The notes under the pieces were generated by a model, which had not been told where the DNA came from, searched no databases, and worked only from the letters and a program-made list of their open reading frames with translations. A DNA stretch of 53,721 nt from a virus: the UHGV virus genome UHGV-0138535; one strand, 5' to 3'. Below are positions 1 to 53,721 of the stretch, piece after piece (position 1 is the stretch's first letter; every line of letters begins with the position of its first letter). The translations under genes were made by a program, and so were the position numbers.

Positions 1-441
1 ATCCGGTTTACGCCATAACGTTGACAGTGCGCCCACCGGATTTTCCACCATCCACGGCACGTTATGCATATTCGCCAGTTTTTCTACCAGTTTTGCGTTA
101 TGCGCCGCCTTCACCTGGAAGTCAGGGTCTTTTTTCCGTTTATCAGCGAACCAGCGAGCGCCTGAAACGGCGAGATTGTCGCATGGAGGAAAGCCCAAGA
201 TAATGTCAGGATCTGGATAAACAGACAATTCAGGGGAGAACATTACCAGGAAATGGCTGTCAATCCATACGTTAAGATATTCAATATTTGGATGAATTAT
301 TTTTACCCCGTCATAATCCCCGTGATTAGCGCCGTCATAGTTGAAGCAATAGCATTTATAACCAGCTTCCGCCCAATCTTTAACGGCGTACCCGCTTCCG
401 TCGTACAGCGACCAGATAACCCAATTTCTAAGCCCGCTCAT
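1..441 (-). CDS. C5-cytosine DNA methyltransferase-like protein, N-terminal part (open to left edge; in-frame continuation at 53398..53721 if circular)
   Basis: Minus-strand ATG at 441 overlapping upstream stop (ATGA); 147 codons open to position 1; SLYDGSGYAVKDW, GFPPCDNLAVSG and MVENPVG resemble C5-MTase motifs I, IV (PC) and VI (EN). Confidence 0.55.
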   Translation of the reverse strand, partial: MSGLRNWVIWSLYDGSGYAVKDWAEAGYKCYCFNYDGANHGDYDGVKIIHPNIEYLNVWIDSHFLVMFSPELSVYPDPDIILGFPPCDNLAVSGARWFADKRKKDPDFQVKAAHNAKLVEKLANMHNVPWMVENPVGALSTLWRKPD

Positions 442-941
442 TTTCTACCCTCAAACGTGAAATAGCGGCGCATGATGATAGTGATCACCGTTACCGCTGC
501 CATTTTTGAGATGAATTGCATAGCTGATATTTCCGGCATAAACGCCATAAACGATAGCGTAGGAAAAATTAACGCATCACCAATGGCGGACGCTATATTT
601 GCAGGCCAACGTTTAGAATCGAAATCACCAGGTAAAACCCGGTAAACGCCGCCAGAAATAAGCGCACCGGAAACAACCGCGACGAATGACGCGATCGCCA
701 CCATTCCGGCGTCGTAATTTATCAGCACCGTGATTGCGCCAGCGGCGGAGCATGTTGTAGCCGACCATTTAAGGCCGCCGCCATATAACAGAAAATCACG
801 AATCATCATATTGACACACACGGCGGCTACCGTGGTGATCGGAATTACCCACGGGCCACAGTGGTTAACAATAAGATTGATGATAACGAAAACGGCGACA
901 TAAACGCAGGCTAATAACCTGTCAATTGCCACCATCTTCAT
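438..941 (-). CDS. small integral membrane protein, tentatively VUT/YhhQ-like transporter family
   Basis: 167-aa track ORF, mostly hydrophobic with several predicted helices; weak recalled resemblance to YhhQ-type transporters; family assignment tentative. Confidence 0.4.
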   Translation of the reverse strand: MKMVAIDRLLACVYVAVFVIINLIVNHCGPWVIPITTVAAVCVNMMIRDFLLYGGGLKWSATTCSAAGAITVLINYDAGMVAIASFVAVVSGALISGGVYRVLPGDFDSKRWPANIASAIGDALIFPTLSFMAFMPEISAMQFISKMAAVTVITIIMRRYFTFEGRK

Positions 942-1260
942 TTAGCTCTCCCTCCCGATCCGCTAATATCTGTTCGGCCTTAAGCGCGTTATAAGCAATA
1001 AGGTCTATAAGAGTGTCGAGCGGATCAGTTCCATTAGCGAGAATAGCCCCTAAACGCGCTTCCTTGAGGCAAATCATTAGATCCCATACATCAAGTGGGG
1101 TTAAATTTGCATTCATCTTAGCGTTGAAAATAGCCGCTATTTTTGGCGCTGATTTTTCTTCTTTTCGATCGTATCCGTTTTGCTCCCCTCTTGCCTCGAT
1201 AGTTTCAGCCGCAAGTCTCAGCAATTCAGCCGCTTTATTCATTTTCTGCACCTCTTGCAT
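922..1260 (-). CDS. hypothetical protein
   Basis: 112-aa track ORF co-oriented in early-left operon; overlaps Dam 3' end by 26 nt. Confidence 0.45.
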   Translation of the reverse strand: MQEVQKMNKAAELLRLAAETIEARGEQNGYDRKEEKSAPKIAAIFNAKMNANLTPLDVWDLMICLKEARLGAILANGTDPLDTLIDLIAYNALKAEQILADREGELNEDGGN

Positions 1261-1774
1261 ATAGCTCTTTACGTGTTATCTGCGTGAAAATACATTCATG
1301 TCTGCATCGTGGATGCCAGATCAGGAACAAGCTCCCCTTATTGTTCCCGCTTACTGGTTTCCCTGTTGCAGCATTGATAAACGCCAGCCGCCCGCGCGTG
1401 ATTAATCGGCATTCGTTTGCCGTCTCCACGCCGTTCATAAACCAGCTAACAGAAATGTCAGCGGGCAATAACATTACGCATCCGATATGATTTCGGCGGT
1501 GTTCAAACGCCGCTTTATCAACGAATGGCCCCGGATTAGAATATGGCGGATTCATCCAGACATACTCACCAGGCATCGCCACCGCTCCCCACGGATAATG
1601 GAGCGTGTCCATTTCTTCGGTTATATATCGCGGTATTAATGCGTTTGCCTTGTTTGCCGCCACATCCGCGACGAACTCGAATTCTCGATCCATTCCTCTA
1701 AAAACGGGTTTTGGCGTTTGCCATAAGTCCTTTATTTCTTTCGGCGTATGGCTGCCGCCGTAATCATTTTTCAT
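1235..1774 (-). CDS. DNA N6-adenine methyltransferase (phage Dam-type)
   Basis: 179 aa; NPPY catalytic motif in WMNPPYSNPGPF typical of N6-adenine MTases. Confidence 0.8.
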   Translation of the reverse strand: MKNDYGGSHTPKEIKDLWQTPKPVFRGMDREFEFVADVAANKANALIPRYITEEMDTLHYPWGAVAMPGEYVWMNPPYSNPGPFVDKAAFEHRRNHIGCVMLLPADISVSWFMNGVETANECRLITRGRLAFINAATGKPVSGNNKGSLFLIWHPRCRHECIFTQITRKELYARGAENE

Positions 1775-1783
1775 TACGCCCCC

Positions 1784-2227
1784 TTAGAAATAATCCTGAT
1801 CTGTTCCCCAGCGGTTATTCAGATACCCCACCAACCACACAAAACGCTCAATACTGATTAGCGGGGCGACCTTGCGATAATGCTTATCTAATATCAGCCG
1901 CGTGGCTTTATCGCTGTAGCCGTTCTTCTCTACCTCCGCTTTGCAGGCCGAAAGCGCGGCGCGGGCGGCAGTCTTTACGGCGTTAAATTGCGGCTCTGAC
2001 ATATTGAATAAGGCCATAGGATCACCATGTGTCAGTCCAATCCGGCGCGGCAGTCCAGCAAAAACCAATGAATGCGCTAACAGCCAATAAAGCGCGGGCT
2101 GCAAAAAGAATATTCCCAATGTCGTTAAATTCAGGAAGCGACCACGTAATAAACATACCCCCCCAGCATAATAACACTGATAACAGTCAGGGCCGCCAGG
2201 AAAACAAAAAGCGTAGCCAAAAGCCAC
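1784..2227 (-). CDS. hypothetical protein (start uncertain)
   Basis: 147-aa track ORF in co-directional gene array; N-terminal third hydrophobic and Cys-rich, true start may be internal (MALFNMSEP). Confidence 0.4.
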   Translation of the reverse strand: MAFGYAFCFPGGPDCYQCYYAGGVCLLRGRFLNLTTLGIFFLQPALYWLLAHSLVFAGLPRRIGLTHGDPMALFNMSEPQFNAVKTAARAALSACKAEVEKNGYSDKATRLILDKHYRKVAPLISIERFVWLVGYLNNRWGTDQDYF

Positions 2228-2260
2228 GCCCCCAACCAGTTAAAAAAGCTCTTAAGCATT

Positions 2261-2464
2261 TTAAACGCCCTCAATTACCCCGCCTTTCACGCGCTCTTTA
2301 ATATCCCATACGTGAGGCTTGCATATTTCCTGATAATAGTGATCCGGCCTGCTGCCGAAATACCATTTGCCATCCATATAAAAATAAACGCCAGAATAAT
2401 TTCCTGGCGCTGCCTTTGTTGCTGCTTCTGGAATTTTCCATTCCATGTAATGTTTAAATTTCAT
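2261..2464 (-). CDS. hypothetical protein
   Basis: 67-aa track ORF, co-oriented, tight spacing. Confidence 0.4.
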   Translation of the reverse strand: MKFKHYMEWKIPEAATKAAPGNYSGVYFYMDGKWYFGSRPDHYYQEICKPHVWDIKERVKGGVIEGV

Positions 2465-52445: not shown

Positions 52446-53047
52446 GCTACCTTTCTCCTTAAGGCGTCCAATTTCGCCTGATAGATGTTTATTAGCTCCT
52501 TACATTCTGCAATCGTCCATTTATGCGTATCGTTGTTGTTCTCCAGAGCTACCACCCTGGCGAGGCCAATTTTTCGAATTAGCGCCGGGCGATACCCTCC
52601 TATGTTTCCGTCTAATGTCTGGTTGCAGTGCCTGCATTGTTTATGGCAATTCTCCTCGTTAAAGCGAAGGTGTCCTGCGGCGGCAACCGTCCTGTAATGG
52701 CCCGCATCCCACCCGCATTGCTCACCGTAGTAAGTCCCGCAGGATATACACGGCAAGCGCGCGTCACGTTCGCGGATATAGGCGTTGAATACGTTTTGAA
52801 CTTGCTTGATCCAGTAGCTGCGCGGATTTAACTGTTTCCGCTTCCGGTTGCGTTCTTCCCGCTGGCTATCGCGGCGTTTCTTCCGTTCCATAGCCTTCAT
52901 AGCCTTTTCACGGTCGCGGCATAGCTGGTCAAACTTCAGTTCTTCCAGACATTCATCGCTGCACCACGTTTGATTATGATATTTAGGCTCAAAAAAAACG
53001 CCGCAGCACTTGCAACGGCGTCTTATGGGTTTTTTAGGGTTTTGCAT
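52442..53047 (-). CDS. ninG: NinG recombination protein
   Basis: Start MQNPKK at 53047 inside track ORF 52442..53137; closely parallels lambda NinG (PRSYWIKQ...RERD..LPCISCGT...WDAGHYRT.AAA..LRFNE.N.HKQC..CNQ). Confidence 0.8.
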   Translation of the reverse strand: MQNPKKPIRRRCKCCGVFFEPKYHNQTWCSDECLEELKFDQLCRDREKAMKAMERKKRRDSQREERNRKRKQLNPRSYWIKQVQNVFNAYIRERDARLPCISCGTYYGEQCGWDAGHYRTVAAAGHLRFNEENCHKQCRHCNQTLDGNIGGYRPALIRKIGLARVVALENNNDTHKWTIAECKELINIYQAKLDALRRKVA

Positions 53048-53061
53048 AAAAACCACCCCGA

Positions 53062-53238
53062 TTATTTTTGATTCTCTGTTTCGTTCAGCCTTTCGGCGTG
53101 TCCGGCCCTTAGCCAATGTTCTAAGCATTCGTTGCACTCGTTACAGCCTCCTTTCTTCGTGCTGCATACATTGCACATTGCACGCATAACGCTTTCTCGT
53201 TCATAGTCGTCATGCCATTGGTAATTATCAAAAGGCAT
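53062..53238 (-). CDS. ninF: NinF-like small zinc-binding protein (58 aa)
   Basis: ATG with GGAGAG RBS; YERESVMRAMCNVC...CNECNEC resembles lambda NinF; not in track. Confidence 0.55.
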   Translation of the reverse strand: MPFDNYQWHDDYERESVMRAMCNVCSTKKGGCNECNECLEHWLRAGHAERLNETENQK

Positions 53239-53358
53239 AATGCTCTCTCCTTTTCAGGTGATTTCTACGCATTTCAGCGCTGCCGGATTTTTAAAGAGCA
53301 TTTTGTTTGCTTGAAGTATACAAAATGGATACGTGCTAACAAGGTGCAAAGCGCCATT

Positions 53359-53374
53359 ATGTGACATTCATCAC
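53359..53374. promoter_or_regulatory. CRP-type palindrome TGTGACATTCATCACA
   Basis: Perfect TGTGA-N6-TCACA flanked by inverted CCATTTTGT / ACAAAATGG motifs. Confidence 0.35.
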
Positions 53375-53397
53375 ACAATGACGCCATTTTGTAAACT

Positions 53398-53721
53398 TCA
53401 GTCCGGCAAAACGCGGTTGAGCGTAGTACGATTGATGGCCCGGTCGTTAGCCAGGAATACAGCACGGGCGAAGCCACGCGGCGTTAGTGAGCGGATCATC
53501 TTTGTTCGCTTTGATTTTCCGCCTAACTTCGCGTGCTGCTTACTGTCTTCCCATTCATCTGGCATCGGCACAGGACGGAATAGCGGCTGCTTAAATCCAT
53601 TCCCGCACCAAATACAAGTTTTCTTCGTGTAGGCGTCGCGGTCGGCAATGTATTCCGGGAAAGCGGGATGCTTATCATCTTCCGGCAGGTAGCCACCGTA
53701 AGCGCACGGATTGAAGATAAA
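53398..53721 (-). CDS. C-terminal part of C5-cytosine methyltransferase-like protein (ORF open to right edge; in frame with 441..1 across junction)
   Basis: 107 stop-free codons from position 53721 to TGA at 53398..53400; CAYGG and RSLTPRGFARA resemble C5-MTase C-terminal motifs. Confidence 0.5.
   Translation of the reverse strand, partial: FIFNPCAYGGYLPEDDKHPAFPEYIADRDAYTKKTCIWCGNGFKQPLFRPVPMPDEWEDSKQHAKLGGKSKRTKMIRSLTPRGFARAVFLANDRAINRTTLNRVLPD

Follow-up and report, generated by a model that had tools for sequence, protein, structure and literature searches.

A methyltransferase-like gene divided between the ends of virus genome UHGV-0138535 is intact on the very probably complete, circular map of an mEpimmI-type coliphage

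The stretch of DNA analyzed here, virus genome UHGV-0138535 (53,721 nucleotides [nt] in full, referred to below as the window), begins and ends inside a gene that resembles DNA methyltransferases. Our findings indicate that the window is very probably one full 53,721-bp unit of a temperate Escherichia coli siphovirus of the mEpimmI group (mEp021-like), with arbitrary ends that fall inside an intact gene encoding a protein with a C5-cytosine methyltransferase (C5-MTase) fold. The apparent splitting of this gene is an artefact of layout produced by an arbitrary start point. Assemblers report circular molecules from an arbitrary base.

The original prediction described two minus-strand open reading frames (ORFs) that run off the two ends of the window in the same frame, and translation confirmed both their coordinates and their frames. 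From the ATG at 441, the minus strand reads down to base 1 through 147 codons with no stop, and the frame entering at base 53721 on the same strand continues for 107 codons before a stop at 53398-53400. Joined end to start, the two pieces give a protein of 254 amino acids (aa), with the junction at residues 147/148. The pieces are as follows.

1-441, minus strand: methyltransferase-like gene, 5' part (codons 1-147); evidence from translation, from a PHROG 757 match that crosses the junction, and from identity to the deposited protein P0121.
53398-53721, minus strand: methyltransferase-like gene, 3' part (codons 148-254 plus stop); evidence from translation, from the family alignment, and from a 254-aa gene call on independent contigs.

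The 5' part holds a motif I-like DGSG (aa 14-17), a PC pair (aa 86-87), and ENP (aa 133-135), while the 3' part holds KKTCIWCGNGF and the invariant IRSLTPRG...A...N. All of the motifs first listed for this gene (FxGxG-like, PC, EN, CAYGG, and LTPRG-ARA-like) were found in the joined protein, as LYDGSGY (aa 12-18), FPPCD (84-88), VENP (132-135), CAYGG (153-157), and LTPRGFARA (226-234).

The joined protein matches PHROG 757, “DNA methyltransferase,” at E=3e-87 in a single stretch that runs across the junction (aa 5-247 against profile positions 13-226 of 247). It is also 100% identical, from first to last residue, to a single gene product present on 4 contigs (P0121, NCBI MCN2118699.1), which is named “DNA cytosine methyltransferase [Escherichia coli]” in its record. 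Identity reaches 98% with a coding sequence (CDS) of Escherichia phage MagusPhagus and 89% with mEp021_33. Because the PHROG 757 match spans the junction and an identical single gene product is on record, the sequence comparisons place the meeting of the two open frames far beyond chance, and the proposal of one 254-aa gene across the junction holds. There is no difference of substance between this protein and mEp021_33 (“putative DNA cytosine methyltransferase”), PHROG 757, or MCN2118699.1; the window merely cuts the gene.

Independent assemblies read through the same point. Six IMG/VR contigs contain the junction as an exact 40-nt string, and each aligns across it as one segment, at 93-99.3%. 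Additionally, 3 contigs from different samples (ENA ERZ1032187 NODE_2_length_53823, Logan SRR2938220_1530, and ENA ERZ27289587 k141_137722) are 100.000% identical to the end plus start of the window, with 0 gaps, over 12-20.5 kb. In k141_137722, record positions 638-5111 equal window 2492-6965, 42305-51867 equal 44159-53721, and 51868-54464 equal 1-2597; window 2492-2597 (106 nt) is present at both ends of the phage part, at a spacing of 53,721 nt, which is exactly the window length. Similarly, NODE_2 measures 53,823 nt, or 53,721 + 102, with a self-overlap that is placed at window 24012-24113 by arithmetic only. The independent assemblies open elsewhere than the window does, the phage part starting from window 2492 in one and from about 24012 (by the same arithmetic) in the other, and both continue from 53721 into 1. 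Record positions 1-637 of k141_137722 are unrelated and encode a UDP-glucose/GDP-mannose dehydrogenase fragment, most likely a chimeric assembly end.

Related phages place the two window ends side by side as well. A 496-nt string composed of the last and first window bases was used as the query for the junction, and the window halves (25 kb each) were searched separately. The string aligns ungapped to MagusPhagus at 97%, under a 765-nt CDS annotated as DNA methyltransferase, and to mEp010, mEp013, mEp021, mEp044, mEp515, and mEp554 at 90-93% with no net indel. Searched apart, the halves reach adjacent bases in each relative, for instance 19079/19080 in mEp515 and 19779/19780 in mEp021, so that 7 related phage records join the two window ends directly. 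The records of these relatives measure 52,961-54,655 bp, compared with 53,721 bp for the window.

A view of a related genome in its integrated form is offered by the prophage of E. coli M1/5. In a whole-window alignment, bases 53721 and 1 of the window fall on chromosome positions 2720511 and 2720512, respectively, hence on neighbouring bases. Between attL and attR, 49,813 of the 53,721 nt (92.7%) align inside the prophage at 82-98% identity per segment; the remaining ~3.9 kb, in which the window differs from this prophage, are internal mosaic segments rather than host DNA and include an HNH+RusA cassette at 51549-52445. Window 13495-16858 corresponds to the right end of the prophage, abutting dgcM, and window 16847-26585 to its left end. 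The overlap defines a 12-bp core next to the integrase gene.

16847-16858, no strand assigned: attP core GTCCTGTCTGGA, the 12-bp overlap of the alignments to the two M1/5 prophage ends (attL and attR in dgcM/ydaM).
15484-16776, minus strand: tyrosine integrase (longest ORF), adjoining attP; taken from the ORF list, with homologous prophages annotating a “tyrosine-type recombinase/integrase.”

Across 904 complete E. coli genomes, matches to the integrase region break off at window 16858, within dgcM. The methylase gene is uninterrupted in the prophage, which is opened at att; the window, in reverse, is opened in the methylase gene and uninterrupted at att, and only a circular map reconciles both. 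The intracellular circle would integrate through attP (16847-16858) into dgcM/ydaM, and the gene that is split here would then lie internal and contiguous in the prophage. A polymerase chain reaction product across attP has been obtained from mEp021 virion DNA, which bears on attP only (PMC11893012).

These observations make it extremely improbable that the window is a prophage excised from a chromosome, or a linear genome with true ends at 1 and 53721, and that the two ORF pieces are separate truncated genes. Such a reading could draw on the fact that no terminal direct repeat was found in the window and that several relatives are deposited as linear records. A prophage excerpt, however, would end at attL and attR, whereas the att core lies inside the window, intact at 16847-16858, with the integrase side joined to the tail-fibre side. 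Both window ends fall within a conserved gene, the identical phage opens elsewhere in independent assemblies and is continuous over 53721 to 1, and the joined protein is on record elsewhere as the product of one gene. Bacterial chromosome was looked for at either end, and both ends lie in the phage gene. Apart from a 108-nt periodicity in the tail-tip gene, no long internal or terminal repeat suggesting a concatemer was found, and no tRNA genes are present in the window. The proposal of a complete genome with a circular map is thus borne out by the adjacency of the ends in relatives and in the M1/5 prophage, the internal att core, and the self-repeat spacing of 53,721 nt.

The original prediction spoke of a circular replicon, a term that suits the map and the intracellular form but not the packaged DNA, which is probably linear. 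The packaging genes identified in the window are the following.

40941-41426, minus strand: small terminase subunit, Sf6 gp1 type (PF20901, E=1e-36; PDB 3hef/4dyc, E=5e-29).
39460-40944, minus strand: large terminase subunit (PF17289 Terminase_6C, E=1.2e-13).

Sf6 and P22 use headful packaging. Given an Sf6 gp1-type small terminase, the virion DNA is, by analogy, probably linear, terminally redundant, and circularly permuted, a form that would account for assemblies that close on themselves and start at any point. The likeness to P22/Sf6-type headful phages covers the Sf6 gp1-like small terminase and the differing start points and self-overlaps among assemblies of one and the same phage. Unlike in those phages, no PDB sequence relative was found for the large terminase, and the packaging mode here is deduced from sequence. 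It counts against this part of our interpretation that it draws on one Pfam/PDB similarity. In the description of the mEpimmI phages, the term “cos” is unused and packaging is mentioned solely as a gene cluster (PMC11893012).

The mEpimmI group consists of Nus-dependent, non-lambdoid temperate coliphages that integrate at ydaM (dgcM), abgT, or mppA (Negrete-Mendez et al. 2025, PMC11893012). The same study lists the E. coli M1/5 prophage as a member with ydaM as its attachment site, reports 50 syntenic core genes, names a DNA cytosine methyltransferase among the proteins in its core-gene analysis, and assigns membership by BLASTn to a member at a coverage of at least 60% and an identity of at least 70% (PMC11893012). 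By this measure, the alignment of 92.7% of the window to the M1/5 prophage at 82-98% places it within the group. The 25-kb window halves give a coverage of 57-82% at ~87% identity against mEp515, mEp554, mEp010, and MagusPhagus, and of only 36% and 67% against mEp021 itself. Integration follows the pattern of the group, with a tyrosine integrase, prophage homologues ending in dgcM, and a 12-bp core common to both ends. The comparison of synteny with the group took in the early/nin region, the terminase, and the genes for lysis and for the tail.

The window shares with the mEpimmI phages (mEp021, MH706966; mEp010, mEp013, mEp044, mEp515, and mEp554; the M1/5 prophage; and MagusPhagus, PP925836) its gene order, a size of 53-55 kb, the dgcM/ydaM site, and the Dam/MTase/Nin/Q arrangement. 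It differs in that no phage-collection record matches the whole window at 99% or more, and it therefore represents a different strain or species of the group. The phage group, the attachment site, and the gene annotation are already published or deposited, and the window is in this sense an ordinary, already known phage.

Regarding the protein itself, the structural comparison predicts a C5-MTase fold, and this link is clearer than the link through sequence. The model examined (AlphaFold, AF2) is that of a homologue, P0001, which is 95% identical to the window protein, and it has a predicted local distance difference test (pLDDT) score of 85.7 and a predicted template modelling (pTM) score of 0.85. 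When it was compared with the PDB by Foldseek, the top 50 matches were all DNMT3A/3B/3C/DNMT1 (E 2e-7 to 6e-5). Together with the PHROG 757 match, this agrees with the methyltransferase-fold similarity first expected of the joined protein. Two BFVD proteins from uncultured Caudovirales, A0A6J5SE15 and A0A6J5NPY6, contain the same compact fold, at 24-27% identity, as one domain of a much longer chain (1,100-1,400 aa); for one of the two, the annotation gives a helicase/UvrB domain at the N-terminus.

Homologues number 2,371 at E<=1e-3, measure 226-262 aa, and come from enterobacterial and vibrio phages and prophages. The source records call several of them (DNA) cytosine methyltransferase, and BFVD matches are likewise named cytosine methylases. 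We aligned 38 members of the family, which are 54-95% identical, and found ~46 invariant positions. The residues invariant in 38/38 include G15 and S16 (of DGSG), N34, P86, C87, E133, N134, P135, W143, and R144, as well as K180, T182, C183, W185, G214, G215, R224, S225, L226, T227, R229, G230, and N239. Both the catalytic Pro-Cys of motif IV and the Glu-Asn of motif VI are thus retained throughout (P86, C87, E133, and N134). PC is followed by D or T in 36 of the 38 sequences; T predominates, and D is the form found in the nearest relatives. Judged from this alignment, PC(D/T) and ENP are the norm of a family under strong purifying selection and not signs of decay.

Canonical C5-MTases (PF00145: M.HhaI, M.HaeIII, and E. 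coli Dcm, together with the DNMT3A/3B domains) share with this family the fold, a motif I-like DGSG, the PC nucleophile, and the EN(P) glutamate. In contrast, the family measures only 226-262 aa and has PC(T/D) in place of PCQ and ENP in place of ENV, and neither QxRxR nor GN is recognizable in it. The closest among the canonical enzymes are the DNMT3 catalytic domains, which have the smallest target-recognition region. PF00145 is the sole Pfam family matched by more than one member: 13 of 38 touch it (E<=5), and 2 of 10 members scanned singly pass its gathering threshold (22 bits), over profile positions 4-94 of 324 only.

Several results weigh against assigning the protein to the C5-MTases. 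The joined protein gives no Pfam, NCBIfam, or PDB sequence match, with PF00145 absent at E<=1, and the Prokaryotic Genome Annotation Pipeline (PGAP) labels the M1/5 homologue a “hypothetical protein.” A family profile searched against the PDB retrieves only C5-MTases (DNMT3B and M.HaeIII), at E~0.25 and only over motifs I-IV; LYDGSGY, with the invariant G15 and S16, aligns to the “LFDG” of DNMT3B only at this E-value, and in an hhalign comparison with E. coli Dcm, nothing but the PC motif is aligned, at a probability of 1.3%. A profile of the C-terminal half returns nothing from the PDB at E<=10, which leaves the view that the C-terminal motifs are typical of C5-MTases without statistical support by sequence. 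The canonical motifs VIII (QxRxR) and X (GN) are unrecognizable in the family; the likeness of KKTCxWxGNGF and RSLTPRGFA to motifs VIII and IX is visual only. On the structural side, the model is that of P0001 and not of the window protein itself, and the Foldseek TM-scores are only 0.40-0.48. A literature search for an experimentally characterized member of the family found none.

Even so, we consider it likely, from the family alignment and the structure model, that the gene encodes an orphan DNA C5-cytosine methyltransferase that depends on S-adenosylmethionine (SAM) and actively forms 5-methylcytosine (5mC). The orphan status is proposed because, in relatives, the gene is flanked by annotated genes for a membrane protein and for NinF, and no nuclease is annotated beside it. 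In the proposed mechanism, the enzyme would use SAM and act on cytosine in DNA: Cys87 (of PC) would attack C6 of a flipped-out cytosine, Glu133 (of ENP) would protonate N3, and the methyl group would be transferred to C5. The region from KKTCxW (aa 180-185) to RTKMIRSL (aa 219-226), with ~30 low-confidence residues, is the likely DNA-recognition loop, and a loop of only ~30 residues would imply a short target sequence. The gene sits in the early recombination/nin operon, between the Dam methylase and NinF/NinG/RusA/Q, and methylation may mark replicating phage DNA and thereby shield it from restriction in the next host.

The original prediction called the PCD and ENP motifs atypical and raised the possibility of a divergent or inactive enzyme. 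In its stronger form, the gene would have decayed into a relic without catalytic activity, or its product would serve a structural or regulatory purpose and retain only the fold. This view can appeal to PCD in place of PCQ, ENP in place of ENV, and the missing Pfam, NCBIfam, motif VIII, motif X, and C-terminal matches described above, but we regard it as unlikely. PC and ENP are invariant in 38 homologues that are as little as 54% identical, D or T follows PC in 36 of them, and the ~46 invariant positions indicate strong purifying selection; inactivity is unsupported by this pattern. The nucleophilic Cys and the catalytic Glu are both retained, the ORF is of full length in all relatives compared, and the family has more than 2,300 members.

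It is a good deal less probable that C5-MTase chemistry is used here with another group, for example carboxymethyl from carboxy-SAM (Cx-SAM), which E. coli makes via CmoA, or that the substrate is RNA or a non-cytosine base. The DNA C5-carboxymethyltransferase CmoX owes its specificity to an Arg that replaces Asn304 of HhaI (PMC12783734). A parallel could be seen in the invariant Arg229 of the present family, which lies just before the last helix, and in the missing GN motif. DNMT3 enzymes, however, carry an Arg at the same position and use SAM. CmoX candidates are recognized by SPPC plus R350, usually with cmoA nearby (PMC12783734). The family has FPPC instead of this SPPC signature, cmoA is not annotated near the gene in the flanks of relatives, and the match to 8yf3 is no better than those to ordinary MTases. 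The identity of the protein as CmoX was set aside as unlikely.

A broader departure from the proposed orphan methyltransferase is that the PHROG-757 proteins form a separate, minimal DNMT3-like C5-MTase lineage (226-262 aa, with PC(T/D) and ENP, a ~30-residue loop, and neither motif VIII nor motif X in canonical form) whose biochemistry departs from ordinary site-specific 5mC formation. We hold this to be rather improbable on the whole. If true, the target could be very short or relaxed, the alkyl donor could differ from SAM (host Cx-SAM, for example), or the substrate could be a different one.

On the closed circle, the genes around the methyltransferase gene form a series on one strand, listed here in the direction of reading.

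1235-1774, minus strand: phage Dam-type N6-adenine methyltransferase (PF05869, E=8e-52).
922-1260, minus strand: DUF6378 gene of the same operon (PF19905, E=3.4e-9).
438-941, minus strand: 167-aa gene upstream of the methyltransferase gene; the mEp021 homologue is annotated as a membrane protein with six transmembrane segments; no Pfam match.
53062-53238, minus strand: NinF-like 58-aa gene, directly downstream of the methyltransferase gene on the closed circle (called on identical contigs; NinF in mEp021).
52442-53047, minus strand: NinG gene, a 201-aa call (the longest ORF extends to 53137) (PF05766, E=4e-66).
51549-52445, minus strand: 298-aa ORF with an HNH_3 and then a RusA domain (PF13392, 8e-21; PF05866, 6e-12), with no internal stop and 298 aa on 5 contigs.
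50642-51364, minus strand: Q-like late antiterminator (PF03589, E=1.7e-29).

The stop codon of the 167-aa gene overlaps the ATG of the methyltransferase gene (ATGA), and the two genes look translationally coupled. An identical 167-aa neighbour is present on 10 contigs; in 6/6 of those listed, the 254-aa gene comes next with a 4-nt overlap and is followed by the 58-aa NinF, NinG, the 298-aa HNH_3+RusA ORF, a 60-aa gene, and the 240-aa Q. The expectation that circularity would place NinF/NinG/RusA/Q downstream of the Dam/MTase genes on one strand agrees with the order Dam/DUF6378/membrane protein/MTase/NinF/NinG/RusA/Q in every relative compared. The predicted RusA is correct insofar as a RusA domain is present, although the ORF that contains it is the 298-aa HNH_3+RusA fusion. 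The NinF/NinG piece of the window was found in 33 complete E. coli genomes.

Within the 298-aa ORF, an HNH_3 homing-endonuclease-like domain (aa 50-94) is followed by an AP2-like stretch and by the RusA resolvase domain (aa 173-278), for which Met164 is a possible separate start. Relatives carry RusA alone (408 nt) and are unaligned at 51549-52445, where the fraction of guanine plus cytosine (GC) is 0.32-0.37, compared with 0.45-0.53 in the flanks. The HNH_3+RusA region looks like an acquired low-GC cassette. The spacer between the methylase stop and NinF (120 nt; 53274-53397) contains an imperfect hairpin, GGCGTCATTGTGTGA...TGTCACATAATGGCGC, which a simple terminator scan did not flag; mEp021 is annotated with a terminator, TERM_4, at this place.

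Other observations concern the structural genes. The 463-aa protein encoded at 37941-39332 on the minus strand matches the Pfam phage portal family PF06381 (E=9e-18), and PGAP names its M1/5 homologue “anti-CBASS protein Acb1 family protein,” which is a conflict of naming. Positions 20679-21523, inside the 1656-aa tail-tip gene at 19577-24547 (minus strand), hold 7 copies of a 59-nt core with a period of 108 nt (36 codons) and 64-100% identity; these repeats appear to be a repeated module inside a J-like tail-tip protein. Two plus-strand ORFs, 27292-27546 and 30103-30762, are embedded among the minus-strand tail genes and may be moron genes. In M1/5, the homologue of the one carries the annotation ParE-family toxin-like protein, and that of the other “type VI secretion system-associated protein TagO.”

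The significance of the closed map is mainly one of bookkeeping. A gene caller applied to the linear record would return two truncated ORFs or miss the gene, and the early operon would be broken between the methylase and NinF; read as circular, the record yields one intact 254-codon gene and the operon order is restored. The PHROG-757-type family of very small, C5-methyltransferase-like proteins to which this gene product belongs is widespread and has no curated Pfam or NCBIfam profile.

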